DNA of 64,000 bases from Alphaproteobacteria bacterium (GCA_016861165.1 BOKV01000012.1:21401-85400); one strand, 5' to 3'; positions 2,492 to 47,685 are shown, numbered from the stretch's first letter. Notes: generated by a model not told the origin, from the letters alone. Translations and numbers: made by a program.

Positions 2492-3661
2492 TCAGCGCGC
2501 CAGGAAATCGCCGATCCGCTCGACCGCGCGGGCGATGTTGGCCTCCGAATTGGCATAGGACAGGCGGATGTAGCCCTCGCCGAGCACGCCGAAATCGGGC
2601 CCGCCAATGGTGGCGACGCCGGCCTCCTCCAGCAGCGCGGCGGCGAGCTTCTTTGCCTGCCAGCCGGTCGCCGAAATATTGGGAAAGGCATAGAAGGCGC
2701 CCTTCGGCACGCGGCAGGAGACGCCGGGCAGGGCGTTGACGGCATCGACGACCAGCCGGCGGCGCCGGTCGAAGGCGGCCATCATCGCGGCGGTGGCGTC
2801 CTGCGGGCCGTCGATCGCGGCGATGCCGGCATGCTGGGTGGGGGCGTTGACGCAGGACCAGCAATTGACGGCGAGCTTGCGGACCTTGTCGATCAGCCGG
2901 TCGGGCCAGACCGACCAGCCCATGCGCCAGCCGGTCATCGCCCAGGTCTTCGACCAGCCATTGAGCAGGATCAGGCGGTCGCGGATCTGCGGGAAAGTGA
3001 GCAGCGATACATGCTCTTCGCCGTCATAGGTCATCACGTCGTAGATCTCGTCGGAGAGGATGGCCAGGTCCGGCCTGTCGGCGAGGCCGGCCACCAGCCT
3101 CTCGATCTCGGCGCGCGGGGTAACGCCGCCGGTCGGGTTGGCCGGCGAATTGACGATGAGGAGGCGGGTGCGCCCGGTGACCAGCGTCAGGGTCTCCTCG
3201 GCCGAGAAGGCAAAGCCGTTCTCCTCGCGGATCGGCACCGGCACCGGCGTGGCGCCGGTGAACTCGATCATCGAGCGGTAGATCGGAAAGCCCGGATCGG
3301 GATAGAGGATTTCGGCGCCGGGCTCCCCGAACATCAGGATGGCGACGAACATCGTCACCTTGCCGCCGGGCACGATGACGACGCTGTCGGGCGACACCTC
3401 GACGCCGGTCGTCGCCAGCGTGCGCCGGGCGACCGCCTCGCGCAGGGCCAGGATGCCGGTCGCTGGCGTGTAGCCATGATGGCCGTCGCGCAGCGCCTTG
3501 ACGGCCGCCTCGACGATATGCGGCGGCGTCTGGAAGTCCGGCTGGCCGATGCCGAGATTGATGATGTCGCGGCCCCGCGCGGCAAGCGCGGTGGCCCGCG
3601 CGAGCACGGCGAAGGCGTTTTCCTCTCCGATGCGGTCGAAGGCGGCGATGGTGTGGAGCAT
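2492..3661 (-). CDS. Pyridoxal-phosphate-dependent aminotransferase (class I/II, aspartate/aromatic type)
   Basis: The homologous part of ORF 2492..4480 begins at MLHTIAAFDRIGEENAF (ATG at 3661). Motifs present: INLGIGQPDF, NSPANPTG, NGWSKTWAMTGWR. The upstream 270 codons have no coding character. Confidence 0.9.
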   Translation of the reverse strand: MLHTIAAFDRIGEENAFAVLARATALAARGRDIINLGIGQPDFQTPPHIVEAAVKALRDGHHGYTPATGILALREAVARRTLATTGVEVSPDSVVIVPGGKVTMFVAILMFGEPGAEILYPDPGFPIYRSMIEFTGATPVPVPIREENGFAFSAEETLTLVTGRTRLLIVNSPANPTGGVTPRAEIERLVAGLADRPDLAILSDEIYDVMTYDGEEHVSLLTFPQIRDRLILLNGWSKTWAMTGWRMGWSVWPDRLIDKVRKLAVNCWSCVNAPTQHAGIAAIDGPQDATAAMMAAFDRRRRLVVDAVNALPGVSCRVPKGAFYAFPNISATGWQAKKLAAALLEEAGVATIGGPDFGVLGEGYIRLSYANSEANIARAVERIGDFLAR

Positions 3662-6437: not shown

Positions 6438-7418
6438 TCAGTCGACGGCAAGCACGATCTTGCCGATGTGGCGGCCTTCTTCCATGCGGGCATGGGCGGC
6501 GGCAGCCTCGGCCAGCGGGAAGGTGCTGTCCATGACCGGCCGCACGCGGCCGGCCTCGACGAGCGGCCAGACCCGGGCTTCCAGCTCGGCGGCGATCCCC
6601 GCCTTGAACTCGACCGGGCGCGGGCGCAGCGTCGAGCCGGTATGGGTGAGCCGCTTGGTCATCAGCTTGGCGAAATTGGCTTCCGCCCTCGGCCCGGCGA
6701 GGAAGGCGATCTGCACGATCCGCCCGTCAGGCGCGGCGGCGTCCCAGTTGCGCTCGATATAGGCACCGCCGACCATGTCGAGGATGAGGTCGACGCCGCG
6801 GCCGCCGGTGAAGTCGTGGCTGGCGGCAACGAAGTCCTCGGTCCGGTAGTTGATGGCCTGGTCGGCGCCGAGATCGAGGCAAGCCCGGCATTTGGCCGGC
6901 GAGCCGGCGGTGGCGATGACCGTGGCGCCGAACGCCTTGGCGAGCTGGATGGCGGTGGTGCCGATGCCGCTGGTGCCGCCGTGGACCAGGAACGTCTCGC
7001 CGGCCGTCAGGCGCCCGCGCTGGAAGACGTTGTGCCAGACCGTGAAGAAGGTCTCCGGTACCGCAGCCGCCTCCGCCATCGACAGTCCGGCGGGGATGGG
7101 CAGCGTGTTCGACAGGTGGGCGACGCACCACTGCGCGTAGCCGCCGCCCGGCACCAGCGCCATGACCCTGCGCCCGACCGCGGCCGCGTCGACGCCGGCG
7201 CCCGCCGCCGCGACCTCGCCGGCGATTTCCAGCCCCGGAATATCAGGGGCGCCGGGCGGCGGAGGATAGGCGCCCTGGCGCTGCAGGCAGTCGGGCCGGT
7301 TAACGCCCGCCGCCGCCACGCGAACGAGCACTTCGCCCTCGCGCGGCCGTGGCACCGGCCGCTCCTCGACGACCAGTACCTCCGGTCCGCCCGGTCGCGA
7401 TATGGCGATCGCCTCCAT
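6438..7418 (-). CDS. qor: NAD(P)H:quinone oxidoreductase (zeta-crystallin / medium-chain dehydrogenase family)
   Basis: Motifs: MEAIAISRPGGPEVL, LVHGGTSGIGTTAIQLAK. The ATG at 7418 has a GGAG upstream. An alternative ATG at 7436 would add 6 aa. Confidence 0.85.
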   Translation of the reverse strand: MEAIAISRPGGPEVLVVEERPVPRPREGEVLVRVAAAGVNRPDCLQRQGAYPPPPGAPDIPGLEIAGEVAAAGAGVDAAAVGRRVMALVPGGGYAQWCVAHLSNTLPIPAGLSMAEAAAVPETFFTVWHNVFQRGRLTAGETFLVHGGTSGIGTTAIQLAKAFGATVIATAGSPAKCRACLDLGADQAINYRTEDFVAASHDFTGGRGVDLILDMVGGAYIERNWDAAAPDGRIVQIAFLAGPRAEANFAKLMTKRLTHTGSTLRPRPVEFKAGIAAELEARVWPLVEAGRVRPVMDSTFPLAEAAAAHARMEEGRHIGKIVLAVD

Positions 7419-7518
7419 GGTCTCCGGCCGTTCCATGCTTCCCCCGAGTCCGCGCGCGGTTTTGGCCGCCGCTTCGATGGACTATAGTGATGCTTCGTTC
7501 GAATGGGAGGTTCAAGCC

Positions 7519-7710
7519 ATGTTCGACGAGGAAACCCCGCCGGCGCGCCAGCCTGGATACATGATCGGCCAGAAGCTCGATGCCATGTCGGTGGCCGAGA
7601 TCAACCAGACCATCGACCGGCTCAGGGCCGAGATCGAGCGGCTAGAGCGGGCCCGCGAGGCCAAGTCCGGCCACATGGCTGCCGCCGAGGCGCTTTTCTC
7701 GAAGAAATAG
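7519..7710 (+). CDS. DUF1192-family small coiled-coil protein
   Basis: MFDEETPP...MSVAEINQTIDRLRAEIERLERAREAK is typical of DUF1192. A GGGAGG Shine-Dalgarno lies 8 nt upstream of the ATG at 7519. Confidence 0.75.
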   Translation: MFDEETPPARQPGYMIGQKLDAMSVAEINQTIDRLRAEIERLERAREAKSGHMAAAEALFSKK

Positions 7711-31666: not shown

Positions 31667-33685
31667 CTAGCTGAGCCTGGACCTTGCCGCCTTGACGATC
31701 GCGGCGGCGGTGATGGCGAAATGCTCATAGAGCGCCTCGCCCGGCGCCGAGGCGCCGAAGCCGTTCATGCCGACGAAGATGCCGTCCTCGCCGACGAAGC
31801 GCTCCCAGCCCTGGCCGATCGCCGCCTCGACCGCGATCCGCACCGGCGCCGTTCCGATCACCGACCGGCGATACTGGGTGCTTTGGGCGGCGAACAGCTC
31901 GAAACAGGGGACCGAGACCACGCGGGCGGGAACACCGGCCGACTGCAGCTCCTCGCGCGCCGCCAGCGCAAGCGCCACCTCCGAACCGGAGGCGAAAACG
32001 GAAACGTGCGCCTCGCCATCGGCCGGCGCCAGTTCGTAGGCGCCGCGCGCGCACAGGTTCTCGGCCGAATATTCGGTGCGCACGGCGGCGAGGTTCTGGC
32101 GGGTCAGCGCCAGCACCGACGGCGTGGTCGCGTGCTCGAGCGCGATCTGCCAGCATTCGGCCGTCTCCATCGTGTCGGCCGGGCGCAGCACCAGGAGGTT
32201 GGGGATGGCGCGCAGCGCCGCCAGATGTTCGACGGGCTGGTGCGTCGGCCCGTCCTCGCCGAGGCCGATCGAATCATGCGTCAGCACATGGATGACGCGG
32301 ATGCCCATCAGAGCCGCCAGCCGGATCGCCGGTCGCGCATAGTCGGAGAAAACGAGGAAGGTGCCGCCATAGGGCACCAGGCCGCGATGCAGCGCGATGC
32401 CGTTCATCGCCGCCGCCATGCCGTGCTCGCGCACGCCATAGTGGATATAGCGGCCGGCAAAGTCGCTCGGCGTGATCGGCGCCGTCTGGCTGGTCTTGGT
32501 GTTGTTGGAACCGGTCAGGTCGGCGGAGCCGCCGAGGGTCTCGGCGACGACGCCGTTGATCACCTCAAGGACGGTTTCCGACGATTTGCGGGTGGCCATG
32601 GTCGGCCTGTCGTCGGCCAGCTTGCGCTTGAAGGCATCCATCGCCTCGGCAAGATTCGCCGGCATGTCGCCGCGCATGCGCCGGTCGAATTCGCCGCGCA
32701 CCTCCGGGTCGAGGGCGGCGAAGCGCTTTTCCCATTCCCGGTATTTCTGGGCCGAGCGCAGGCCGGCGATGCGCCAGGCGTCGAGGGTTTCCGACGGCAC
32801 CTTGAACGGCGGGCAGGTCCAGCCAAGCTTGTCGCGGGTGGCCTCGATCTCCTTGGTGCCGAGCGGCGAGCCGTGCGCCTTGGCGGTGCCGGCCTTGGTC
32901 GGTGCGCCATAGCCGATGGTGGTCTTGCAGGCGATGAAAGTGGGTCGGTCGGAGGCCTGCGCCTGCGTCAGTGCCGCGGCGATCTCGGCCGGCTTGTGGC
33001 CGTCGACGCGCAGCACGCTCCAGCCCGACGCCTTGAAGCGGGCCATCTGGTCGGTCGAGTCGGCCAGCGAGACCGGTCCGTCGATCGAGATGCTGTTGTC
33101 GTCCCAGAGGACGATCAGCTTGGCCAGCCGCAGATGGCCGGCGAGCGCGATCGCCTCCTGGCTGATGCCTTCCATCAGACAGCCGTCGCCAACCAGGCAA
33201 AAGGTGCGGTGGTCGACGATGCCGGGTCCGAATTGGGCGGCGAGCTTGCGCTCGGCGATTGCCATGCCGACGGCGTTGGCAAGGCCCTGGCCGAGCGGGC
33301 CGGTGGTGGTCTCGATGCCGGCGGCGTGGCCGTATTCGGGGTGACCGGCGGTGCGCGAGCCGAGCTGGCGGAACTGGCGGATCTGGTCGAGGTCGATGTC
33401 CTCGTAGCCGAGCAGGTAGAGCACCGAATAGAGCAGCATCGAGCCGTGGCCGGCCGACAGCACGAAACGGTCGCGGTCCGGCCAGTCGGGGTGCTGCGGA
33501 TCGAAATCCATGAACTGGGTGAACAGCACGGTGGCGATGTCGGCGGCGCCCATCGGCAGGCCGGGATGGCCGGAATTGGCCTGCTCGACGGCATCCATCG
33601 ACAGGAACCGGATGGCGTTGGCCATGTCGTTGAGTTGGTCGGGGTGCGTCATCGGATTCAGCGTGGGGTCCTGGCCCTGCGGCAT
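31667..33685 (-). CDS. tkt: Transketolase
   Basis: [32 protein letters not shown]. An alternative start lies at 33652. Confidence 0.95.
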
Positions 33686-33994
33686 CGGTCAGGCCGCGCA
33701 CCGGGGTCTGGCCCGCGCCGCGGCGGCCTGTGCGGGCGCGGCACTCATACCAGTTGAAATGGCCGAGTCAATGCGCCGCCGCCGCCGCGTCGGGGCCGCC
33801 GCGGACGACCAAAGGGCCGCAAGTGTTCAAAACTGGGATCGCCTTGTTGACGCCGATTTCGCGCAAGTTCTAATGTTTTTCCGGTAACCGCTTGCCGAAA
33901 CGCCGGATTGGCGGCGGCAACGGGGCCCAAGGCCCAAAGGCCATCGGCGGTCGGCGCCGGAGCGGGCGGGCAGGCGTGGCAGGTCGGTGCGGCA

Positions 33995-34309
33995 ATGAAC
34001 GCTTCCTCCAGTTCCCCCGGGATGGGCGAAGGCAGCCTCGCGGCAGCGCTGGCGCGGCTTGGCCGCGCCCTCGACCGGCTCGAGGAGGCGGTCGACGGCC
34101 GGCTGGAGCGCGAGGCGCAGCTCGCCGACACCGAGGCCGAGGTCCAGCGCATCGGCGCCGACCGTACGCGGCTGGCCGAATCGCTCGACAGCGCCGAGGC
34201 GCGCGCCATGCGGCTCGAAGCGGCCAATCGCGAGGTGTCGCGGCGGCTGGTCGACGCCATGGAGGCAATACGGGCGGTGCTCGACCGCCCGGCTGCCGCA
34301 CAATCCTAG
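33995..34309 (+). CDS. DUF4164 coiled-coil protein in the position of Caulobacter ZauP (ZapA-associated upstream protein)
   Basis: Heptad-rich LARLGRALDRLEEAVDGRLEREAQLADTEAEVQRI, directly upstream of zapA. The start is uncertain (33995 or 34022). Confidence 0.65.
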   Translation: MNASSSSPGMGEGSLAAALARLGRALDRLEEAVDGRLEREAQLADTEAEVQRIGADRTRLAESLDSAEARAMRLEAANREVSRRLVDAMEAIRAVLDRPAAAQS

Positions 34310-34363
34310 CAACGCGGCCCTAGCAACGCGGGCCTGGCAATACGGGCAGGAACGGGGGGAGCG

Positions 34364-34741
34364 ATGGCGCATGTGACCGTCACCATCAACGGCAGGACAT
34401 ACCGAATGGCCTGCGAGGAAGGGCAGGAGGAACATCTGCACGGCTTGGCCGACCGGCTGAATGACTATGTCGGGCAGCTGCGCGGCGCCTTCGGCGAGAT
34501 CGGCGATCAGCGCCTGACCGTGATGGCCGGCATCACCGTCATCGACGAGCTGGAGGAGGCGCGCCGGCGCATCCGCAGCCTGCAGGCCGACATCGAGACG
34601 CTGCGCGCCAGCCGCGACGAGGCGCTCGGCAAGGCGTTCTCGGCCGAAGGCGAGCTGGCGCGCCAGATTTCGGCGGTGGCCGAGCGCATCGAGGCGATCG
34701 GCGACCGGCTGGGGGCGCCCAAGCCGGCCGCCCGGCCCTGA
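34364..34741 (+). CDS. zapA: Cell division protein ZapA
   Basis: VTVTINGRTYRMACEEGQEEHLHGLADRLN...QRLTVMAGITVIDEL. Confidence 0.9.
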   Translation: MAHVTVTINGRTYRMACEEGQEEHLHGLADRLNDYVGQLRGAFGEIGDQRLTVMAGITVIDELEEARRRIRSLQADIETLRASRDEALGKAFSAEGELARQISAVAERIEAIGDRLGAPKPAARP

Positions 34742-34809
34742 CGGCGGGTCGCCTGCAAGCGCAGACGCCACGGGTACTGGCGCGGCGCGGCCGGCCAGCC
34801 TATATGTTG

Positions 34810-34972
34810 CAGCGCGGGCTGCGTGGTGCGTCGGACCATCTATCCCCGGGGCCTTATCGATCCTGAAGGGAGCTGTCCCTGACCGGGCCCGTGGGTCCGG
34901 ACATATGGCGCCCACCTACCTCGTAGGTTCCCGGGATCGTCAGCGTCTGACGGCCAAGGCGGCTCGCATCCG
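34810..34972 (+). ncRNA. ssrS: 6S RNA (boundaries +/- 10 nt)
   Basis: Canonical zapA-ssrS-ygfA synteny. Closing stems GCGGGCTGC (34814..34822) with GCGGCTCGC (34959..34967), and GCGTCGGAC (34828..) with GTCTGACGG (34945..). TATATG -10-like hexamer at 34801. T-run at 34972. Confidence 0.7.
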
Positions 34973-35011
34973 TTTTTCGTCCGGTCGGTGGCGCCGCCAC
35001 GGGGGCTAGCG

Positions 35012-35617
35012 ATGAGCGCAAGGCAACAGAAGGCGGCGCTGAGGGAAAGCGCGCTCGCCCGTCGCGACCGCCTCCATCCTGGCAGGCGGGCAGAGGCGAG
35101 CCGCCTGGTCGCCGACCATGCCGAACCGGAGATCGCCTTTGAGCCCGGCACGGTGGTCGCCGGCTTCCTGCCGATCCGCTCCGAGATCGACCTGCGACCG
35201 CTGATGCAGCGCCTGGCGGCGCGCGGCGCACGGCTGTGCCTGCCGGCGGTGGTCGACCGGATGACCATCGCCTTTCGCGAATACGTGCCCGGCGAAGTGC
35301 TGGTCGCAACCGGCTTCGGGACCGTGGGGCCGGGCCCCGAGGCCGCCGTGCTGGACCCCGCGATCCTGCTCATGCCGCTTGCCGCCTTCGACGCCGCGGG
35401 CAATCGGATCGGCTACGGCGCCGGCCACTATGACCGGGCCATCGACCGGCTGCTCGCCAAGGGGATCGAGCCGATGCGCATCGGCTTCGCCTTCTCGGTG
35501 CAGGAAGTCGACCACGTCCCGGCGCAACCCCACGACCGGCGGCTCGACGCCGTGGTGACCGAAGCCGGCTTCCGGTGGCTGCGCCGCGACAGTGGCAAGC
35601 GGGCGAAGGCGGGCTGA
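35012..35617 (+). CDS. ygfA: 5-formyltetrahydrofolate cyclo-ligase
   Basis: KAALRESALARR, GFLPIRSEID, NRIGYGAGHYDR. Confidence 0.85.
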   Translation: MSARQQKAALRESALARRDRLHPGRRAEASRLVADHAEPEIAFEPGTVVAGFLPIRSEIDLRPLMQRLAARGARLCLPAVVDRMTIAFREYVPGEVLVATGFGTVGPGPEAAVLDPAILLMPLAAFDAAGNRIGYGAGHYDRAIDRLLAKGIEPMRIGFAFSVQEVDHVPAQPHDRRLDAVVTEAGFRWLRRDSGKRAKAG

Positions 35618-36432
35618 TGCGGCTGCTGTTCCTGGGCGACATGGTCGGGCGCAGCGGCCGCGAGGCCGTCTACGCGCAGCTTCCCGGCATGATCGCCGAC
35701 TGGAAGACCGACTTCGTCATCGTCAACGGCGAGAACGCCGCCGGCGGCTTCGGCATCACCGAGGCGATCCTCAACGAGACACTGGCCGCCGGTGCCGACG
35801 TGGTGACGACGGGCAACCACGTCTGGGATCAGCGCGAGGCGCTGATCTTCGCCGACCGCTACGATCGCTTCCTGCGGCCGGCCAACTTCCCGCCGGGCAC
35901 GCCGGGTCGCGGCGCCAACCTCTACGAGGCGCGCAACGGCGCGCGCGTCCTCGTCGCCAACATCATGGGCAACGTGTTCATGGGAGCGCCGCTCGACGAC
36001 CCGTTCCAGTGCGGCGAGAGGCTGCTCGGCGAGGTGGCGCTCGGCCGCGACGCCGATGTGATCGTCGTCGATTTCCACGCCGAGGCGACGTCGGAAAAGG
36101 TCTGCTTCGCGCTGTTCGTCGACGGCCGGGCATCGGCGGTGATCGGCACCCACACACACACGCCGACCGCCGACCATCAGATCCTGCCGGGTGGTACCGG
36201 CTACATCTCGGACGCCGGCATGTGCGGCTCCTTCGATTCCTCGCTCGGCATGGACAAGGAAGAGCCGCTCAACCGCTTCCTCACCAAGATTCCAAAAGGC
36301 CGCTTCGACGCGGCGACGGGCGAGGCGACGCTTTGCGGCGTCGGCATCGAGATCGACGATGCGACCGGACTGACCACCCGCATCGCCCCGCTCAGGATCG
36401 GACCGAGGCTCGAAAATGTGAGGCCATGGTAG
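35617..36432 (+). CDS. YmdB-like (TIGR00282-type) metallophosphoesterase
   Basis: MRLLFLGDMVGRSGR, VIVNGENAAGGFGIT, DFHAEATSEK, GTHTHTPTAD. The ATG shares one base with the ygfA stop. Confidence 0.85.
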   Translation: MRLLFLGDMVGRSGREAVYAQLPGMIADWKTDFVIVNGENAAGGFGITEAILNETLAAGADVVTTGNHVWDQREALIFADRYDRFLRPANFPPGTPGRGANLYEARNGARVLVANIMGNVFMGAPLDDPFQCGERLLGEVALGRDADVIVVDFHAEATSEKVCFALFVDGRASAVIGTHTHTPTADHQILPGGTGYISDAGMCGSFDSSLGMDKEEPLNRFLTKIPKGRFDAATGEATLCGVGIEIDDATGLTTRIAPLRIGPRLENVRPW

Positions 36433-36439
36433 GTCCTTA

Positions 36440-36756
36440 TCAGCTTCCCGCCGGCAGCGCGTGGCGCCATGCCGCTGCGAGCGCGTCGGCCAGCTCGGCG
36501 GCATCGATACGGTCGAGGGCAATGGTGGTCCAGCCCTGGCGACCCCAGGCATTGGCCACCGGGCTGAAGGCGGCTGGGTTCATAGTGCAGCGGAATGCCT
36601 GCTCGTCCGGCAGCAGCTTCAGGTTGGCGGTCGCGCCGTCGGCGGCGAGCGTGGCGTAGATGCGCTTTACGCGGAAGGCGCGACGGTCGAAATGGGGCGC
36701 CTCGCGGGTTCCATCGAGCGCCAGTGCGAGGGCGGCGAACCGGTCGGCGGCTACCA

Positions 36757-36757
<1 letters not shown>
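36440..36757 (-). CDS. MmcQ/YjbR family protein
   Basis: REAPHFDRRAFRVKRIYATL. The ATG at 36757 overlaps the upstream stop (ATGA). Confidence 0.7.
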
Positions 36758-37626
<869 letters not shown>

Positions 37627-37767
37627 CACTTCCTCCTCCTCGTCGACGGTGCCCGGGGACGCCTTGCCGGCGATCGGCCGAGGCGCATCATCTGGACGAA
37701 ACGGCGCGCCTTTGTCTATAAGCGCCCCAACTTTCCGACAGGACGAGACCGTTTTCGAGGGTGGGCC

Positions 37768-38514
37768 ATGGCAGGCCATTCACAATTCAAGAACATCATG
37801 CACCGCAAGGGCCGCCAGGATGCGGCCCGCTCCAAGGTATTCTCCAAGCTGTCGCGCGAGATCACCGTGGCGGCAAAGCTCGGCGTGCCCGATCCGGACA
37901 TGAACCCGCGCCTGCGCCTGGCCATCCAGGCGGCCAAGGCGCAGTCGATGCCGAAGGACAACATCCAGCGGGCGATCAACAAGGCGGCGGGCAACGACGC
38001 GGAAAACTACGAGGAGGTGCGCTACGAGGGCTACGGGCCGGGAGGCGCGGCGGTGATCGTCGAGGCGCTGACCGACAACCGCAACCGCACCGCCTCCAGT
38101 GTCCGCGCCGCATTCACCAAGGCCGGCGGGGCGCTCGGCGAGACCGGCTCGGTCGGCTTCATGTTCGATCGCGTCGGCGAGATCGTCTATGCGGCTTCGG
38201 CCGGCAGCGAGGAGACGGTCATGGAGGCGGCGATCGAGGCCGGTGCCCAGGATGTGCAGTCGGACGCCGACAGCCACGTGATCCTGTGTGCCTTCGAAGA
38301 CATCGGCGAGGTTTCGAAGGCGCTTGAGGCAAGGCTCGGAGAGGCGGCGTCGGTCAAGACCATCTGGCGACCGCAGACCATGGCGCCGCTCGACGAGGAC
38401 AAGGCCCAGTCGATGCTGCGGCTGATCGGCGTGCTCGAGGACGACGATGACGTGCAGAACGTCTATTCGAACTTCGAGGTCTCCGACGAAGTGATGCAGA
38501 AGCTGTCGGCCTGA
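37768..38514 (+). CDS. yebC: YebC/PmpR family transcriptional regulator
   Basis: [30 protein letters not shown]. Confidence 0.95.
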
Positions 38515-38591
38515 GCTCGCGATTCGGCCGGGCGTGATTGGGCGTGATCCCGGCGATGGCCGAATCAGCGCCGCCGGGCTACCATCGCGCC

Positions 38592-39113
38592 ATGACGGCG
38601 CGGCCCATCCGCATCATCGGCATCGATCCCGGGCTCCAGCGAACCGGCTGGGGGGTGGTGGAGGCGCGGGGCAACGCCTTCGCCTTCGTGGCCTCCGGCA
38701 CCGTGCGGTCGCAGCCGGCCGATGCGCTTGCCGTCCGGCTGTGCGCGCTGCATGACGGGCTGATGGCGGTGATCGAGGCGCTCGGGCCGGCCGAGGCGGC
38801 GGTCGAATCGACCTTCGTCAACCGCGACGGCGCGGCGACCCTGAAGCTTGGCCAGGCGCGTGGCGTGGCGGTGCTGGCGGCGGCCCGCTCCGGCCTCGGC
38901 GTGGCCGAATACGCGCCGAACGCGGTCAAGAAGGCCGTGACGGGTGTCGGCCATGCCGACAAGGTCCAGATCCGGGCGATGGTGGGCATGCTGCTGCCGA
39001 AGGCCGAGTTCGATTCCGACGATGCCGCCGACGCGCTCGCCATCGCCATCTGCCATGCCCACCACCGCGGCCGGGCCGAACTGGCGGCGCGGATAGCCAG
39101 TGCCGCGAAGTGA
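38592..39113 (+). CDS. ruvC: Crossover junction endodeoxyribonuclease RuvC
   Basis: [46 protein letters not shown]. Confidence 0.95.
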
Positions 39114-39156
39114 GGATGCGGTGAGATGTTCTTGACTTGTTCTGGTCCTCGTGCAA

Positions 39157-39179
39157 GGTAATACGCTGGAGGTATTACC
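39157..39179. promoter_or_regulatory. Perfect 8-bp inverted repeat GGTAATAC-gctggag-GTATTACC enclosing the vapB1 Shine-Dalgarno; candidate antitoxin operator. TTGACT -35-like hexamer at 39132..39137
   Basis: Read directly. It ends 1 nt before the vapB1 ATG. Confidence 0.5.
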
Positions 39180-39458
39180 ATGCGGGTAACCGTCAAGGGC
39201 CAGGTAACCATTCCCAAGCCCATCCGCGACCGATTGGGCATCGGTCCCGGCAGCGAGGTGGCGTTTGTGCCGAGCGGCGACCGTGTCGAGATGGTCAGGG
39301 TCGGCAAGGGCGATGGCCAGCGGTCGCGCAGAGCCATTCTTGCGGATTCGCTGCGGCGTCTTGCGGGTCTGCCTGGCGCAGATATGGCCGGCGCGCTCGA
39401 CGGCAAGCAATATACGGACTGGTTGCGTGGGCCGCGCGACGATGCCGATTCTGGTTGA
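39180..39458 (+). CDS. vapB: AbrB/MazE/SpoVT-type antitoxin (VapB-like), module 1
   Basis: MRVTVKGQVTIPKPIRDRLGIGPGSEVAF is a swapped-hairpin SpoVT_AbrB motif. It overlaps the downstream PIN gene by 17 nt. Confidence 0.85.
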   Translation: MRVTVKGQVTIPKPIRDRLGIGPGSEVAFVPSGDRVEMVRVGKGDGQRSRRAILADSLRRLAGLPGADMAGALDGKQYTDWLRGPRDDADSG

Positions 39459-39855
39459 TACCAATGTCATCATCGATGCGCTCCTCCCGGCGTCGCTCTT
39501 TCACCGCGCCGCCCGCGACGCCATGCTCGACCTGGTGGAAGACGAGCGGCTCGTGATCAACGAGGTGATCTGGTCGGAGTTGGCGCCAATGGCCGGCGAT
39601 GAAGAGGAACTGGCTGCCGTCTGCCGGCGTTTGCTGCTGGAACGCGAGGAGATCGGTTGGAAGGCGGCTTACCTGGCGGGCGAGGCGCACGCCCGTTACC
39701 GGCGGTCCGGCGGAATGCGCGAACGAACATTGCCCGACTTCTACATCGGCGCCCACGCGCTGGTCGCCGGCCACCGCCTGCTGACGCGCGACGCGGGGCG
39801 CTACCGAGCCTTTTTCCCGTCACTCGAAATCGTCGCGCCGGACAGCCATCCGTGA
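39442..39855 (+). CDS. vapC: PIN-domain ribonuclease toxin (VapC-like), module 1
   Basis: [12 protein letters not shown] (Asp1), SELAP (Glu), [19 protein letters not shown] (C-terminal Asp). ATG at 39442. Confidence 0.85.
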
Positions 39856-39865
39856 GAACCGAGGC

Positions 39866-40483
39866 GTGATCGGCAAGCTGAAGGGAATCGTGGACGCGAT
39901 CGGCGAGGATCACCTCATCCTCGATGTCGGCGGCGTCGGCTATCAGGTGCACTGCTCGACGCGCACACTGGCGAACCTGCCCGGTCCCGGCGAGGCGCTC
40001 ACCCTGTGGATCGACACGCATGTGCGCGACGATGCGATCCGCCTGTACGGTTTCCAGAGCGAACTGGAACGCGACTGGTTCCGTCTGTTGCAGACGGTCC
40101 AGGGCGTCGGCGCGCGCGTCGCGCTCGCCGTGCAGTCAACGCTGTCGCCGGGCGACCTCGCCTCGGCCATTGCATTGCAGGACAGGGGCATGGTGGCGCG
40201 CGCGCCCGGCGTCGGCCCGAAAGTGGCGAGCCGCATCGTCGCCGAACTGCGCGACAAGGCGCCGGCCTATTCGGGCGCGGCCGCGGCCGAGATCGGCCTG
40301 CAGCGGGCCATCGGGGCCGGGCTCGCCGCCACACCGGTCACCGACGCCGTGTCGGCGCTCGCCAATCTCGGCTATTCGTCGCAGCAGGCCTCCGGCGCCG
40401 TGGCGCGCGCGCTGAAGCAGGCCGGAGAGACGGCCGACAGCGCCCGCCTGATCCGCCTGGCACTGAAGGAACTGGCGGGGTGA
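39866..40483 (+). CDS. ruvA: Holliday junction branch migration protein RuvA
   Basis: [27 protein letters not shown], two HhH motifs ([24 protein letters not shown]). GTG start at 39866. Confidence 0.95.
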
Positions 40484-40505
40484 ATCCTTGCGCAAAGGAT
40501 GATTT

Positions 40506-40527
40506 CTTACTATTCTTGCATAGTAAG
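40506..40527. promoter_or_regulatory. Perfect 8-bp inverted repeat CTTACTAT-tcttgc-ATAGTAAG, plus direct repeat GTAAGGAA at 40523 and 40541; candidate vapB2 operator/promoter
   Basis: Read directly in the AT-rich 65-nt spacer between the ruvA stop and the vapB2 ATG. Confidence 0.5.
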
Positions 40528-40548
40528 GAATTGAACGAGGGTAAGGAA

Positions 40549-40836
40549 ATGGGAGCGTTGGCAAAGATCACCGCAAAAGGACAGATCACCCTTCCCAAGG
40601 AGGTGCGCGAACGCCACGGCCTGAAGCCGGGCGACCGGGTCGAGTTCGTCGAGGAGGGCGGCAAGACCTGGGTGAAGCCGCGGAACCTTAGAGCGGTTGA
40701 CCTGATGGGCATTCTCGGGCGGCCTCCATCCGGGAAGGCGCCATCCGTGAGAGAGATGGACGAGGCCATCATGAAAGCAGTGGCGGAGGATGACGAGCGT
40801 ATAGAGCGCGAGTGGCGTGAAGGTATCGATGAGTGA
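40549..40836 (+). CDS. vapB: AbrB/MazE/SpoVT-type antitoxin (VapB-like), module 2
   Basis: MGALAKITAKGQITLPKEVRERHGLKPGDRVEF. ATG at 40549 behind an AAGGAA Shine-Dalgarno. Confidence 0.85.
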   Translation: MGALAKITAKGQITLPKEVRERHGLKPGDRVEFVEEGGKTWVKPRNLRAVDLMGILGRPPSGKAPSVREMDEAIMKAVAEDDERIEREWREGIDE

Positions 40837-41234
40837 TCGGCGTCGACACCAACGTCGTCGTCCGCATCCTCAGCGAGGACGATTCTGCGCAGGTGAGGGC
40901 GGCGGTCGCACGCTTCCTCTCGGCGCGTACCGCGGACGATCCGGCCTATATCAGCGCTGTAGTCTTGACCGAGGCGGTCTGGGTGCTGCGGAGCAAAATG
41001 GGGTATTCGCGGCATTCAATCAGTTCGGCATTGGCGGTGCTGCTCGACAGCGGGGAATTGCGGTTCGAACATGCCGACCGGCTTCGCGCCCTGCTCGAGA
41101 AGCCCATGCCGGCGAAAGTGGAGCTCACCGACTATCTGATCGCGTGGTGCGCGGAATCTGCCGGCTGCTCACGGACCGTCACCTTCGACAGGCGCGCCGC
41201 CAAATCCGTCCCCGGCATGGAACTGCTCGCATGA
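40833..41234 (+). CDS. vapC: PIN-domain ribonuclease toxin (VapC-like), module 2
   Basis: IGVDTNVVVRIL (Asp), LTEAVWVL (Glu), TDYLIAWCAESAGCSRTVTFD. The GTG start overlaps the vapB2 stop (GTGA). Confidence 0.85.
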   Translation: MIGVDTNVVVRILSEDDSAQVRAAVARFLSARTADDPAYISAVVLTEAVWVLRSKMGYSRHSISSALAVLLDSGELRFEHADRLRALLEKPMPAKVELTDYLIAWCAESAGCSRTVTFDRRAAKSVPGMELLA

Positions 41235-41241
41235 GGGAGCA

Positions 41242-41862
41242 ATGGGACTGAAAATCACAACGCTTGCACGGCTACCGGAAAAGACTGACCGTGCCTTTTT
41301 TGTCTATTTTCTCGATTACGGCTGGGACGACGACCTCACACGGGCGATGTATGAAAACTTCGATATGCTTGCGGAAGTGGCGGCTGAAAATCGTGGTCTG
41401 CTAGTTGCCGGCCTTGATCGGACGGAGTTTGCCAACGAGGTGCTGAGTTGGCACCACGTTAACAACGATCCCGCCGATGACCTCCTGCCAGCCATCATGG
41501 TAACTGACGTCGAGCCACGCCTGCTGGCAGATGCCAGTGGGTTTGACTTCGGCGAGGTCCGGCAACGCCCAAGTTCACGTACGGCTTACCCCGAAAGGTT
41601 CGTTCTTATACCTCTAAGAGATATCTGCAACAGCGCTGCTGACGTTACCGAGTTATTGCAGAAGCTTGTCACGGATTTGCGCTCCGGACGCTCTCTTCCC
41701 GACTTCGAAATTTGCCGGGTGAAGGCCAAAGGGCCTGATGCTGCGGCAAACATGGTAATCCTTCAGCCAAACGTGGGCGGTATTGGTGTTGATTTGAAAG
41801 AGATTTATCGCTGGTCCAAAGAGAAATGGCAGTCGCTGTCGGCTGGTGGCGAGAAGTTGTGA
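41242..41862 (+). CDS. Hypothetical protein of 206 aa, no recognisable family; foreign composition
   Basis: GAGGGAG Shine-Dalgarno 4 nt upstream of the ATG, which lies 8 nt after the vapC2 stop. The first 60 nt are 48% GC and GC3 is about 50% by eye, against roughly 90% GC3 in flanking core genes. The stop overlaps the ruvB GTG. Confidence 0.7.
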
Positions 41863-42896
41863 GCAACCCGCCCCGCCTGGTCTCGGCCGATGAGCGCGGC
41901 GACGATCTCGATGCGTCGCTGAGACCGCAGTCGCTCGCCGATTTCGTCGGGCAGGCGCAGGCACGCGAGAACCTCAAGGTGTTCATCGAGGCGGCCAAGA
42001 AGCGCGGCGAGGCGCTCGATCATGTGCTGTTCGTCGGCCCGCCGGGGCTCGGCAAGACGACGCTCGCCCAGATCATGGCGCGCGAGCTCGGCGTCAATTT
42101 CCGCGCCACTTCCGGACCGGTGATCGCCAAGGCCGGCGACCTCGCCGCGCTGCTCACCAATCTCGACGAGAACGATGTGCTGTTCATCGACGAGGTGCAC
42201 CGGCTCAACCCCGCGGTCGAGGAGATCCTCTATCCGGCGATGGAGGACTTCCAGCTCGACCTCATCATCGGCGAGGGGCCGGCGGCGCGCTCGGTCAAGA
42301 TCGACCTGGCGCGGTTCACCCTGATCGCGGCGACGACGCGGCTCGGGCTGCTGACGACGCCGCTGCGCGACCGCTTCGGAATTCCCGTCCGGCTGAATTT
42401 CTACACGGCCGAGGAACTGGAACTGATCGTGCGGCGCGGCGCCCGCATCATGGGGCTCGCCCTGTCGGACGACGGCGCCAGGGAAATCGCCCGGCGCGCC
42501 CGCGGCACGCCGCGCATCGCCGGCCGGCTGCTGCGCCGGGTGCGCGATTTCGCCGAGGTCGCCGCCGTTCCGGTCGTCGACGCCGGGATCGCCGACGCGG
42601 CGCTGACGCGGCTCGAGGTCGACGAGAAGGGGCTCGACCAGCTCGACCGGCGCTATCTGGACCAGATCGCCCACAATTTCGGCGGCGGGCCGGTCGGCAT
42701 CGAGACGATCGCGGCCGCCCTTTCCGAGCCGCGCGACGCCATCGAGGACATCATCGAGCCGTTCCTGATCCAGCAGGGGCTGATCCAGCGCACTCCGCGC
42801 GGGCGCATCCTCACCGCCAATGCCTGGAAGCACCTCGGACTCGAGGCGCCGGCCGATCTCGCGGCGGCGCAGATGCGGCTGTTCGAGGAGGAGTGA
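41859..42896 (+). CDS. ruvB: Holliday junction branch migration DNA helicase RuvB
   Basis: [26 protein letters not shown] matches the usual RuvB N-terminus. Walker [19 protein letters not shown] at 41859 is preferred over the listed ATG at 41826. Confidence 0.95.
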
Positions 42897-42900
42897 GCGA

Positions 42901-43290
42901 ATTGCGAGACTGCCGCTCGACGCACCTATCCTGCTCGCGGCGATGCGGGCGGATGTGCACAGGCTGCAAACGGCCATCGCATCCATGTTGACCGAGCGGA
43001 GCGATCCGGTATTCGTCGGTGTCGCGAGCCTCGGGGAAATCGCGGTCAGGACGCGCCCTGGCAAGCCCGACAGCCCGGTCCCGCCGGCGGAGTTCGGTGG
43101 TTGCCTGGCAAATGCGGGCTGTCAGCTCCCGCCGATCAAGGCTACGGACGTCGTGACGGAGGTGCCGCCGGCTCCCGCAAGCCGATACCCCTTCGACCGG
43201 CTGCTGCTTGCCCAGTGCGCGGCCGAGGGCATGCGGCTGATCACGCTCGACCGGTCGCTCGCCGGCCATCCGCTTTGCGCCACGAGGTAA
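42901..43290 (+). pseudogene. Orphan, probably degenerate PIN-domain (COG3744-type VapC) gene with no canonical start and no antitoxin
   Basis: (I)ARLPLDAPILL...VGVASLGEIAV...YPFDRLLLAQC...LITLD aligns to the LLLDTH / SxWEIAIK / DPFDR / TxD pattern. The DPFDR Asp is replaced by Tyr. The only in-frame ATG (42820) lies 77 nt inside ruvB. GC3 is relaxed. Confidence 0.5.
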
Positions 43291-43294
43291 ACCC

Positions 43295-43750
43295 ATGTCG
43301 CGAGACAAGACCGTTCTCGCCAATCGGCTCATTCCCGACGGCCACGAGATGGAGGTGCGCGTCTACTACGAGGACACCGACTTCTCCGGCGTCGTCTACC
43401 ACTCCAACTATCTCAAATACATGGAGCGTTCGCGCACCGAGTGGCTGCGCCACCTGAAGATATTCCACACCGATTTGGAGAAGGACGACAGCGCCTTCGC
43501 CATCCACCGCATGAGCCTCAAATACGGGCCGCCGGCCAGGATCGACGACCTGCTCACCGTGCGCACCACGCTGCAGAAGCTGACCGGCGCCCGGTCGTTC
43601 CTGCGCCAGGAAGTATGGCGCACCGAGCCCGATGGTTCGCAGACGTTGTTGTGCGGCGCCGATGTCGAGGTCGCCTTCATCAACCATGGCGGCGGCGCCA
43701 AGCGCTTTCCCGACGACCTGCGCGCCCGGCTCACCGGGGAGGGCGGATGA
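43295..43750 (+). CDS. ybgC: Tol-Pal-associated acyl-CoA thioesterase YbgC
   Basis: VRVYYEDTDFSGVVYHSNYLKYMERSRTEWL is a 4HBT hotdog motif. Confidence 0.9.
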   Translation: MSRDKTVLANRLIPDGHEMEVRVYYEDTDFSGVVYHSNYLKYMERSRTEWLRHLKIFHTDLEKDDSAFAIHRMSLKYGPPARIDDLLTVRTTLQKLTGARSFLRQEVWRTEPDGSQTLLCGADVEVAFINHGGGAKRFPDDLRARLTGEGG

Positions 43751-43985
43751 CCGCCAACGGAACGGCAGCAACGCTTTCTTAACCCTAACGAGGCTCTAAT
43801 GGCGCCGGGCCGGCCGGCAGGCGGCCCCGCACGTCATGCTTTGGACAAGATTGTCCGGTCTTGACGAGCGCCAGGGACGGGAACGGGCTGGATGGTGCGG
43901 GCAGGACGCTGGACGTGCCGGCCCGGATGTTGCCGCCCCGCCAGGCTTTCCGCGCATCGTCGGTTCTTCGAAGGGGCCCGCATCC

Positions 43986-44750
43986 ATGACCGGGATGGAA
44001 ATATTCGGTATCGCCCCGGCCTATGCCCAGGAGGTGGCGACGGGGACGCTGGCCACGGCCGGCGAGCGCGTCACGCTGCTCGCCTTGTTCTGGCAGGCCG
44101 GCCTGGTGGTCAAGATCGTCATGATCGGGCTGCTGCTCGCCTCGATCTGGACCTGGGCAATCATCTTCGACAAGATGCTGGCCTTCGCGCGCGCCCGGCG
44201 CCAGCTCGACCGCTTCGAGAAGGTGTTCTGGTCGGGCCAGAGCCTGGAGGAGCTCTACCGCTCGCTCGCCGACCGCAACCCCACCGGCATGGGCGCCATC
44301 TTCGTCGCCGCCATGCGCGAATGGAAGAAGAGCTTCGAGCGCGGCGCCTCTTCGCCGATCGGCCTGCAGATGCGCATCGAGAAGGCCATGGACGTGGCCC
44401 TGGCGCGCGAGAGCGAGCGGCTCGAAGGGCGGCTGATGTTCCTGGCCACCGTCGGCTCCTCGTCACCCTTCATCGGCCTGTTCGGAACGGTTGTCGGCAT
44501 CATGACATCGTTCCAGGCGATCGCCGGCTCCAAATCGACCAATCTGGCGGTGGTGGCGCCCGGCATCGCCGAGGCGCTGCTGGCGACGGCGCTCGGGCTG
44601 CTGGCGGCCATTCCGGCGGTCGTCGCCTACAACAAGTTCTCGACCGACGCGGCCAAGATAACCGCGCGTATGGAGGGCTTTGCCGACGAGTTTGCCGCCA
44701 TACTTTCGCGACAGATCGATGAGAAAACGCGGGCGCGTGCTGCCGAGTGA
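43986..44750 (+). CDS. tolQ: Tol-Pal system protein TolQ
   Basis: MotA/TolQ/ExbB core: LATVGSSSPFIGLFGTVVGIM, APGIAEALLATALGL. ATG at 43986 (alternative 43995). Confidence 0.9.
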   Translation: MTGMEIFGIAPAYAQEVATGTLATAGERVTLLALFWQAGLVVKIVMIGLLLASIWTWAIIFDKMLAFARARRQLDRFEKVFWSGQSLEELYRSLADRNPTGMGAIFVAAMREWKKSFERGASSPIGLQMRIEKAMDVALARESERLEGRLMFLATVGSSSPFIGLFGTVVGIMTSFQAIAGSKSTNLAVVAPGIAEALLATALGLLAAIPAVVAYNKFSTDAAKITARMEGFADEFAAILSRQIDEKTRARAAE

Positions 44751-46352: not shown

Positions 46353-47685
46353 ATGCCGATTGCCAGAGCGCTTGCGTTTGTCCGTCGCCTGCCCGGCCTG
46401 CCGGGGCGGCCCGCCCCGCTGCTTGGCCTGCTGTGCGCCCTGATGGCCGCCTCGCCGGCCGCAGCGCTGGTCGAGATCGACATCACCAAGGGCAATGTCG
46501 AGCCGCTGCCGATCGCCATCACCGATTTCGCCGGCGACCAGGTCGCGCGCGACATCGCCGGTGTGGTCGAGGCCGATCTGAGGAATTCCGGCCTGTTCCG
46601 GCCGATCGAGAAGGCGGCGTTCATCGACCGCATCAGCGGCGTTGACGGCGTGCCGCGCTTCCAGGACTGGAAGGTGATCAACGCCCAGGCACTGGTGACC
46701 GGCAGGGTCAGCCAGGAGCCGGACGGCCGGCTGAAAGCCGAGTTCCGGCTGTGGGACGTCTTCGCCGCCCAGCAGATGGTTGGCCAGCAGTTCTTCACCA
46801 ATCCGCAGAACTGGCGCCGCGTCGCCCACATCATCGCCGACGCCATCTACGAGCGCCTGACGGGCGAGAAGGGCTATTTCGACACCCGCATCGTCTTTGT
46901 CGACGAGACCGGGCCGAAGGAGAAGCGCGTCAAGCGGCTGGCGATCATGGACCAGGACGGCGACAATGTGCGCATCCTGACGACCGGCAGCGAACTGGTG
47001 CTGACGCCGCGCTTCTCGCCGACCCGGCAGGAAATCACCTACATGTCCTATGCCGGCGGCAACCCCCGGGTCTATCTGCTGCAGATCGAGACAGGCCAGC
47101 GCGAACTGGTCACCAATTTCCCCAACATGACGTTCAGCCCGCGCTTCTCGCCCGACGGCCAGAAGATCATCATGAGCCTGCAGCAGAACGAGAACTCCAA
47201 CATCTATGTGATGGACCTGCGCTCGCGGGCGATGACGCGGCTCACCAATACGGCGGCAATCGACACCGCGCCGTCCTATTCGCCCGACGGCAACCGGATC
47301 GTGTTCGAGTCGGACCGCGGCGGCCGCCAGCAGCTCTATGTGATGAACGCCGATGGCTCCAACCAGCAGCGCATCTCCTTCGGCGACGGCACCTACGACG
47401 CCGGTGTGGTCGCCGCGCGGCGACCTGATCGCCTTCACCAAGCGCTCCGGCGGCCAGTTCTCCATCGGCGTCATGCGGCCCGACGGCTCGGCCGAGCGCA
47501 TCCTGACGGAGGGCTATCACAACGAGGGGCCGACCTGGGCGCCGAACGGCCGGGTGCTGATGTTCTTCCGCGACGTGGCGGGTGGACCGCAGATCTATTC
47601 CATTGATCTGACCGGCTACAACGAGCGGCGCGTGCCGACGCCCAACCACGCCTCCGATCCGGCCTGGTCGCCGCTGCTCGACTGA
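46353..47685 (+). pseudogene. tolB: tolB interrupted by a +1 frame break near 47397 (real pseudogene or assembly indel)
   Basis: ORF 46353..47606 is TolB up to ..[10 protein letters not shown]. The conserved continuation [15 protein letters not shown]...[10 protein letters not shown] is in ORF 47353..47685, one frame over. DNA reads tac-g-acg-ccg-gtg-tgg. Confidence 0.85.

Follow-up and report, generated by a model that had tools for sequence, protein, structure and literature searches.

A predicted SOS-type ruvAB operon with VapBC toxin-antitoxin cassettes at fixed junctions in an alphaproteobacterial genome

Gene content of the ruvC-ybgC block

In a 64,000-nucleotide (nt) stretch of an Alphaproteobacteria bacterium genome (GCA_016861165.1, BOKV01000012.1:21401-85400), the whole of which is called the window below, the Holliday-junction genes ruvC, ruvA and ruvB are separated from one another by VapBC toxin-antitoxin pairs, and a third PIN-domain element follows ruvB. 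A first-pass annotation had read one strand as ruvC, vapB1-vapC1, ruvA, vapB2-vapC2-orf206, ruvB, an orphan PIN gene, ybgC and tolQRAB-pal, and this order was matched by open reading frame (ORF) listing, by Pfam scans and by direct reading. The tight spacings it gave proved exact when read from the sequence: 10 nt between the vapC1 stop and the GTG of ruvA, a 4-nt overlap (GTGA) of orf206 with ruvB, and 4 nt between the stop of the third PIN element and the ATG of ybgC. The domain sets of RuvC, RuvA (N, HhH, C) and RuvB (N, lid, C) are complete, and all score far over their Pfam cut-offs. The features of the block and its immediate flanks are as follows.

38538-39113, + strand: ruvC (Pfam RuvC, 149 bits; the true start is probably later, at ~38595).
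39128-39142, + strand: candidate LexA-type box, GTTCTTGACTTGTTC, a direct repeat of the form GTTC-N7-GTTC containing CTTGAC and kept in ~30 loci.
39153-39183, no strand: predicted VapB1 operator, GCAAGGTAATAC-N7-GTATTACCATGC, an inverted repeat overlapping the Shine-Dalgarno sequence and ATG of vapB1.
39180-39458, + strand: vapB1, AbrB/SpoVT-type antitoxin (Pfam MazE_antitoxin, 34 bits; NCBIfam AbrB domain, 45 bits).
39442-39855, + strand: vapC1, PIN-domain toxin (Pfam PIN, 45.9 bits), with a 17-nt overlap with vapB1.
39866-40483, + strand: ruvA, GTG start (Pfam RuvA_N, HHH_5, RuvA_C).
40502-40531, no strand: predicted VapB2 operator, ATTTCTTACTAT-N6-ATAGTAAGGAAT, an inverted repeat and possible internal promoter region.
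40549-40836, + strand: vapB2, AbrB/SpoVT-type antitoxin (Pfam MazE_antitoxin, 49 bits; NCBIfam AbrB domain, 51 bits).
40833-41234, + strand: vapC2, PIN-domain toxin (Pfam PIN, 40.9 bits), with a 4-nt overlap with vapB2.
41242-41862, + strand: orf206, a low-GC (54%) gene with no family match, whose stop overlaps the ruvB start.
41859-42896, + strand: ruvB, GTG start (Pfam RuvB_N, 267 bits).
42898-43290, + strand: probable relic of a Phd/VapC-type PIN toxin gene (Pfam PIN, 17.4 bits, under the cut-off).
43295-43750, + strand: ybgC thioesterase (Pfam 4HBT), opening gene of the tol-pal cluster, with tolQRAB-pal next.
37768-38514, + strand: yebC, from the ORF list.

Taken individually, the two cassettes are ordinary VapBC members of a kind annotated in public genomes. 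In each, a small upstream gene for a DNA-binding antitoxin overlaps the toxin gene, and both VapC1 and VapC2 clear the Pfam PIN cut-off of 23.6 bits. The acidic D/E/D/D residues of the PIN domain are invariant in 12 of 12 VapC1 homologues and 14 of 14 VapC2 homologues, which argues for purifying selection on active toxins. The three PIN sequences of the window are mutually 25-29% identical and thus are not local duplicates of one another. Both palindromes noted in the first-pass annotation are present, each with 12-nt arms that are 92% complementary (39153-39164/39172-39183 and 40502-40513/40520-40531), and comparison across relatives indicates that each cassette type has its own conserved palindrome, a predicted operator. 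Upstream of vapB1 homologues, a core GTAATAC-N-GTATTAC palindrome is conserved in distant lineages whose RuvA is merely 53-87% identical, and in several of these it also covers the vapB1 ribosome-binding site; most vapB2 homologues are preceded by other conserved half-sites, CTTAC(T)...GTAAG. The palindrome at 39153-39183 is accordingly labelled a predicted VapB1 operator and that at 40502-40531 a predicted VapB2 operator.

Cassettes 1 and 2 across related genera

To place the cassettes in relatives, we fetched 80 species-level loci from GTDB genomes with RuvA and searched them by tblastn; the best RuvA match, from a Salaquimonas metagenome-assembled genome (MAG), is 87% identical, and the sample includes Nitratireductor, Aurantimonas, Jiella, Fulvimarina, Labrys, Methylocystis and Beijerinckiaceae. 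VapB1/VapC1 homologues lie at the ruvC-ruvA junction in 10 of these loci and VapB2/VapC2 homologues at the ruvA-ruvB junction in 12, and a cassette of either type was never found in the other type's slot. Altogether, at least 15 other lineages have cassette 1 at ruvC-ruvA (among them Rhizobium leguminosarum, Neorhizobium, Aminobacter, Aurantimonas and Fulvimarina), and at least 14 lineages have cassette 2 at ruvA-ruvB. VapC1 has 455 database homologues at E <= 1e-5, and the four sampled from cultured genomes (Aminobacter aganoensis, Neorhizobium galegae, Sinorhizobium sp. RAC02 and Propylenella binzhouense) are all at ruvC-ruvA, with N. galegae carrying a VapC2-type cassette at ruvA-ruvB too. 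A Joint Genome Institute (JGI) metagenome contig, L081, reads ruvC, MazE-PIN, ruvA, MazE-PIN, ruvB and, after further genes, Phd-PIN and ybgC; it is 76-86% identical to the window in nucleotide sequence over aligned segments and has each of the three PIN elements at the junction where the window has it. In R. leguminosarum bv. viciae 3841, RL3987 (vapB), RL3988 (vapC), RL3989 (ruvA) and RL3990 (ruvB) are consecutive, and transposon insertions (INSeq) in all four genes led to the same attachment phenotype (PMC11406972), a pattern that fits polarity within one operon.

On these comparisons, cassettes 1 and 2 appear as old residents of fixed slots common to many Rhizobiales. The suggestion that three independent PIN loci had been inserted in this genome is therefore not borne out, since homologous cassettes 1 and 2 occupy the same junctions in many related genera and L081 has all three elements. 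The outcome that the first-pass annotation had named as refuting its reading, the same elements at the same sites in related genomes, was largely obtained for these two cassettes. The arrangement remains far from chance, as had been claimed, with shared ancestry and slot conservation as its cause rather than three coincident insertions. The accompanying idea of a preferred landing site survives in modified form: each of the junctions acts like a fixed slot with its own type of cassette, in which alleles are replaced between close relatives and other small genes accumulate too.

The slots are more stable than the alleles they hold. Between two Aurantimonas loci (L015 and L018), RuvA, RuvB and VapC1 are 96%, 98% and 95% identical and VapC2 37%; between another Aurantimonas pair (L018 and L026), RuvA, RuvB and VapC2 are 94%, 99% and 92% identical and VapC1 51%. 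Toxins and antitoxin C-termini diverge far faster than their neighbours and not in a clock-like manner, and the VapC trees are at most partly congruent with that of RuvA (Spearman 0.30 for VapC2 and 0.54 for VapC1). Strict vertical inheritance of the cassettes is ruled out by these partly congruent trees together with the clear allele replacements. Judging from the sequences, toxin alleles are replaced between near-identical species, and we infer that replacement occurs in situ, by recombination through the conserved ruv flanks.

orf206, the third PIN element and other junction occupants

The segment between vapC2 and ruvB varies between close strains. Two Logan assemblies, L084 and L085, are 99.8% identical to positions 33437-41232 of the window and 99.3% identical to 41874-44573, and the intervening 641 nt that hold orf206 (41233-41873) are replaced there by 263 nt (7797-8059 in L084). 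This 263-nt stretch is an internally deleted remnant of another gene type, represented by a 157-amino-acid (aa) ORF at ruvA-ruvB in L011, of which it keeps the first 25 residues and, at the C-terminal end, the NWGxFEPxW motif. The exchange spans the vapC2 stop codon to about codon 5 of ruvB, and the ruvB start is overlapped in both versions.

The window comes from the MAG 'Alphaproteobacteria bacterium BroJett030', and the orf206 protein is 100% identical to BroJett030_18540; it belongs to a family of ~190-206 aa and had no match in Pfam, NCBIfam or PADLOC. Its AlphaFold model (predicted local distance difference test, pLDDT, 75) gave weak thioredoxin-like matches (best E 0.04 in the PDB and 0.004 in a viral library, template-modelling score (TM) ~0.28), and the protein is without a CxxC motif. 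Every homologue of at least 44% identity with readable flanks lies at ruvA-ruvB (L006, L090/L096, L091, L092, L094 of the Maricaulaceae, and L097); these ruv-linked genes span Hyphomicrobiales and Maricaulaceae, occur with or without vapBC2 and usually overlap the ruvB start, and in all six ruv-linked lineages measured, the window among them, the GC content of orf206 is ~15-25 points below that of the flanking ruvA and ruvB. Roughly 70 more distant members of the family (<=42% identity) lie away from ruv genes, and some of them adjoin DNA methylases or an LmuA-like protein. A role as third component of the VapBC2 module was rejected because homologues stand at ruvA-ruvB without any VapBC in L006, L092, L094 and L097, and the remoter members away from ruv genes give no support to a general partnership with RuvAB. 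From its distribution and its overlap with ruvB, orf206 is best described as strain-variable cargo of the vapC2-ruvB slot with predicted translational coupling to ruvB.

The PIN element after ruvB had been counted as a third PIN toxin locus, an orphan without its antitoxin; its sequence points instead to a decayed relic. Its Pfam match reaches 17.4 bits against the cut-off of 23.6 and covers the C-terminal 28 residues alone. Reading on from the ruvB stop, one reaches the first catalytic Asp codon without passing an ATG, GTG or TTG, and the first in-frame ATG (42943) lies 3' of that codon. Three homologues were found. The one in L081 is 56% identical, intact and 128 aa long, follows a Phd-family antitoxin gene and adjoins ybgC; its ATG corresponds to ATTGCG in the window, where the antitoxin is missing. 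The window copy has lost conserved T, W, H and D residues through substitution (DTH to DAP, WEI to GEI, RDPFD to RYPFD). Relative to the 99%-identical contig L084, the element has four nonsynonymous and no synonymous changes, in contrast to one nonsynonymous and seven synonymous changes in yebC. Thus, an intact orphan toxin is ruled out by the sub-threshold Pfam score, the missing start codon, the lost antitoxin and the purely nonsynonymous changes, and on this sequence evidence we regard the element as a decaying remnant of a Phd-PIN module.

In L081 (4708-8004), genes of the Metallophos, YkuD, Rhodanese and MarR families lie between ruvB and the Phd-PIN pair, and a Metallophos phosphoesterase gene also stands directly after ruvB in L046, L047, L177 and L178. 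In the window, the PIN body follows the ruvB stop with everything in between lost; the absence of the whole Metallophos-to-Phd stretch suggests that the antitoxin of the third module was lost by deletion.

The junctions of the block are permissive in relatives as well. Among the 80 loci, gaps range from 5 to 5240 nt at ruvC-ruvA, from 2 to 4531 nt at ruvA-ruvB and from 4 to 6582 nt at ruvB-ybgC, and contiguous junctions make up merely about half of those assessable, so that the contiguity of ruvC, ruvA and ruvB assumed for alphaproteobacteria in the first-pass annotation holds for only about half of the related species sampled. Occupants elsewhere include PEP mutase, MFS, DAO, Uma2, RNA ligase, an isoprenylcysteine-methyltransferase-like family, ParDE and BrnTA. 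In the closest genera, Salaquimonas and Nitratireductor MAGs (L001-L010, L016), a gene of ~300 aa resembling HODM_asu (PF11927) occupies ruvC-ruvA; it lies upstream of the LexA-type box where that box is detectable, and in L005 it occurs together with vapBC1. Directly after ruvA, several Hyphomicrobiales (L009, L012, L036, L040, L052, L055, L071, L079) encode multi-pass membrane proteins of 147-190 aa, none with a Pfam match; some of these genes have a very low GC content at third codon positions (GC3, 0.35-0.39), and L012 has two tandem copies. In a Beijerinckiaceae MAG (L043, 12582-13099) a ParD-ParE pair separates ruvB from ybgC, and in Phreatobacter (L092, 5604-6063) BrnT-BrnA, encoded on the opposite strand, separates the orf206 homologue from ruvB.

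Predicted SOS control and its bearing on RuvAB

The candidate box GTTCTTGACTTGTTC, 37 nt upstream of the vapB1 ATG, fits the LexA motif GTTC-N7-GTTC given for alphaproteobacteria in PMC3323433 and PMC9578287; LexA sites have been predicted at alphaproteobacterial ruvCAB promoters (PMC3323433), and a Caulobacter SOS box and ruvCAB induction are described in PMC9578287. The same 14 specified bases recur at the equivalent position in ~30 related loci. Where vapBC1 is missing (12 loci), the box, GTTCTTGAC-N-TGTTC, precedes ruvA by 56-202 nt; in all loci with vapBC1 and available upstream sequence it lies 714-738 nt upstream of ruvA and ~36-63 nt upstream of vapB1. The box thus stands directly upstream of ruvA where the cassette is missing and upstream of vapB1 where it is present, which puts vapBC1 between the predicted SOS promoter and ruvA. 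We therefore designate GTTCTTGACTTGTTC the predicted SOS promoter of a vapBC1-ruvA operon. It contains CTTGAC, a -35-like hexamer, and if this is the -35 element, the conserved vapB1 palindrome would fall about where the -10 element and the transcription start are expected.

Further sites of this type were seen outside the block. In Aminobacter aganoensis (L176, 2842-3523), the LexA-type box is duplicated, at 2842 and 3202, and ruvC is separated from vapB1-vapC1 by an additional MazE/AbrB-like ORF (2900-3151), an orphan. The other GTTC-N7-GTTC match of the window, GTTCAAGCCATGTTC at 7510-7524, overlaps a possible ATG start (MFDEETPP...) within a 102-aa ORF (7402-7710) and may be a chance occurrence, given the 1.35 matches expected.

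Terminator-like sites were absent between ruvC and ybgC, the single match of the scanned stretch being inside yebC, and no Rfam family matched in the block at E <= 0.1. The earlier claim that the cassettes are co-transcribed with the ruv genes thus gains indirect support from the tiny spacers and this negative scan, and the claim that toxin-antitoxin autoregulation is coupled to RuvAB expression gains similar support from the LexA-type box upstream of vapB1 or ruvA and from the position of the operator. Taken together, we consider it rather probable that the block is an SOS-type ruvAB operon with two long-resident, slot-specific VapBC modules, a Phd-PIN remnant before ybgC and orf206 as cargo before ruvB.

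In such an operon, transcription would start at the LexA-box promoter, with the CTTGAC -35 inside the box, and would run through vapB1-vapC1 into ruvA and then on through vapB2-vapC2-orf206-ruvB, a read-through that the missing terminators and coupled starts suggest. The VapB1-VapC1 complex would bind the palindrome over the -10/+1 region and the vapB1 ribosome-binding site. With vapBC1 between promoter and ruvA, autoregulation by the antitoxin would act on the repair genes too, and both LexA and the toxin-antitoxin complex would gate the synthesis of RuvA and RuvB as repressors. DNA damage would co-induce the PIN RNases and the branch-migration motor, and the RNases may then impose a transient translational pause in recombinational repair. 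A second, internal promoter before ruvB would plausibly be under VapB2 control. The cassettes would persist through addiction, and imprecise removal of vapBC1 would cut ruvA off from its promoter, favouring persistence. Extended across Hyphomicrobiales, the slot-specific VapBC modules might constitute a built-in regulatory layer of ruvAB, with expression set by LexA cleavage and the toxin:antitoxin ratio, damage-induced PIN RNases pausing translation and parts exchanged via the ruv flanks; we offer this extension tentatively, as a possibility that falls somewhat short of being probable. The underlying coupling of the cassettes to RuvAB expression we infer from the placement of box, operator and genes.

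Several observations weigh against the SOS-operon reading. Just ~19 of the 80 sampled species carry either cassette, and RuvAB clearly functions without them. The window has two GTTC-N7-GTTC matches against 1.35 expected by chance; the motif is thus not enriched, and the significance of the box rests wholly on its conservation across species. A simple sigma-70 consensus scan gave no promoter anywhere in the block, a result that is uninformative because such a scan is poorly suited to high-GC alphaproteobacteria, and internal promoters could make ruvA or ruvB independent of the cassettes. Causes besides polarity could account for the INSeq phenotype shared by the four genes in R. leguminosarum, and LexA control, VapB binding, transcription and toxicity are here predictions from sequence.

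Other histories for the cassettes were weighed against the same evidence. Three independent, relatively recent insertions of mobile PIN loci, with the ruv junctions as a preferred landing site, would be in keeping with junctions that take unrelated genes in other species (HODM-like, PEP mutase, MFS, Uma2, RNA ligase, membrane proteins, ParDE and BrnTA), with PIN sequences that, being 25-29% identical, are not mutual paralogues, and with an orf206 segment that differs between two 99.8%-identical strains. However, many genera with a RuvA that is only 53-87% identical carry the same cassette types and operators at the same junctions, L081 has all three PIN elements, and the ORF lists and a short junction-repeat scan gave no integrase, transposase or repeat boundary, although the cassette edges were not searched specifically. 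Moreover, the window and L084 do not differ at all in vapB1C1, ruvA or vapB2C2, and hence there is no sign of recent cassette arrival. A recent triple insertion is accordingly rejected, because the cassettes are syntenic across many genera and have the same sequence in the window as in L084, and we hold it to be highly improbable.

A neutral alternative treats the cassettes as selfish hitch-hikers, addiction modules that are transcribed with ruvAB from a tolerated position, with no role in Holliday-junction processing and no meaningful effect on RuvAB levels. Most sampled relatives are without the cassettes, fast allele turnover and the decay of the third PIN element resemble the dynamics of selfish elements, and unrelated cargo shares the same slots; these points sit uneasily with the strict conservation of the box-operator-vapB1 architecture across genera and the invariant catalytic residues, and with a promoter upstream of vapB1 and an operator over the predicted -10/+1 region an effect on ruvA transcription is hard to avoid. 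We consider such hitch-hiking unlikely. The extreme divergence of toxins and antitoxin C-termini against conserved operators, and the remote orf206-family members beside DNA methylases and an LmuA-like protein, could also suggest abortive-infection or anti-phage modules that use the SOS promoter as a sensor of damage or infection, in which phage counter-defences drive allele replacement and the ruv site matters for inducibility only. PADLOC returned no match for any of the three PIN elements or orf206, and the block contains no other defence genes; defence is, in our estimation, the most improbable of these explanations, and the SOS-type ruvAB operon with resident VapBC modules remains the reading we favour.

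Parts of this arrangement have precedents. In E. coli, the DNA-damage-tolerance operon dinB-yafN-yafO-yafP is reported to contain an SOS-regulated type II toxin-antitoxin pair (Singletary 2009, as cited in PMC9578287). The likeness lies in a type II pair inside, and co-transcribed with, a LexA-controlled repair or tolerance operon, which in our case is predicted. In E. coli the pair is downstream of the repair gene, whereas here vapBC1 lies between the promoter and ruvA; YafO is a ribosome-dependent RNase, whereas the toxins here are of the PIN-domain type; and the window, unlike the E. coli operon, has two stacked cassettes and a probable relic. The promoters of Caulobacter crescentus higBA and of a plasmid higBA are described as combining a LexA box with antitoxin autoregulation (Kirkpatrick 2016, as cited in PMC9578287 and PMC8230891). 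As far as these citations describe it, that system shares with the window a GTTC-N7-GTTC box on a type II promoter, dual control by LexA and antitoxin and an RNase toxin that checks growth after DNA damage, all of which is predicted here; higBA appears there as a stand-alone locus of the HigB/RelE family, whereas the window has VapC/PIN toxins in a repair operon and regulation that is predicted.

The closest likeness in gene order is RL3987-RL3990 of R. leguminosarum 3841, with an AbrB antitoxin gene and an overlapping PIN toxin gene directly upstream of ruvAB (PMC11406972); in its annotation ruvA is directly followed by ruvB, and hence, unlike in the window, cassette 2 is absent. That paper mentions the VapBC pair in passing, as mutants sharing the ruvAB phenotype, and does not discuss a LexA box, operator, order-wide conservation, second cassette or allele turnover; it was also the only item found in the searchable literature on a vapBC-ruvAB or LexA-vapBC link in Rhizobiales. 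In Vibrionaceae, ruvCAB operons are split by one or two inserted genes (PMC3323433), so that the ruvC-ruvA junction likewise takes foreign genes with LexA control of ruvAB retained. Vibrionaceae belong to another bacterial class with another LexA motif, however, and the inserts are not reported as toxin-antitoxin genes, nor is occupancy of the ruvA-ruvB junction described. From the E. coli and Caulobacter systems this locus differs by a pair wedged between the predicted promoter and the repair genes, by the stacking of two slot-specific VapBC lineages, and by order-wide conservation with allele swapping.

The role of chromosomal type II toxin-antitoxin modules is a long-running dispute, on which two VapBC lineages tied to one operon and one predicted signal, the SOS response, have a bearing across an order that includes culturable, genetically tractable rhizobia. 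The locus raises testable questions: whether antitoxin autoregulation gates RuvAB, whether damage activates the PIN toxins, and what effect the cassettes have on survival of UV or mitomycin C. The pattern of fixed slots and swapped alleles offers a system in which toxin-antitoxin specificity diversifies with a constant operator and DNA-binding domain. If the cassettes do form a regulatory layer, R. leguminosarum and N. galegae would provide a natural, tractable chromosomal toxin-antitoxin pair with a defined physiological partner; if they are inert passengers, the locus would still be a well-documented case of permissive junctions in a core operon.

Downstream of the block, tolB (46353-47685) carries a single-base frameshift at ~47390-47400, beyond which the 'SFGDGTY' reading carries on in another frame; this reflects either a MAG assembly error or a genuine pseudogene.

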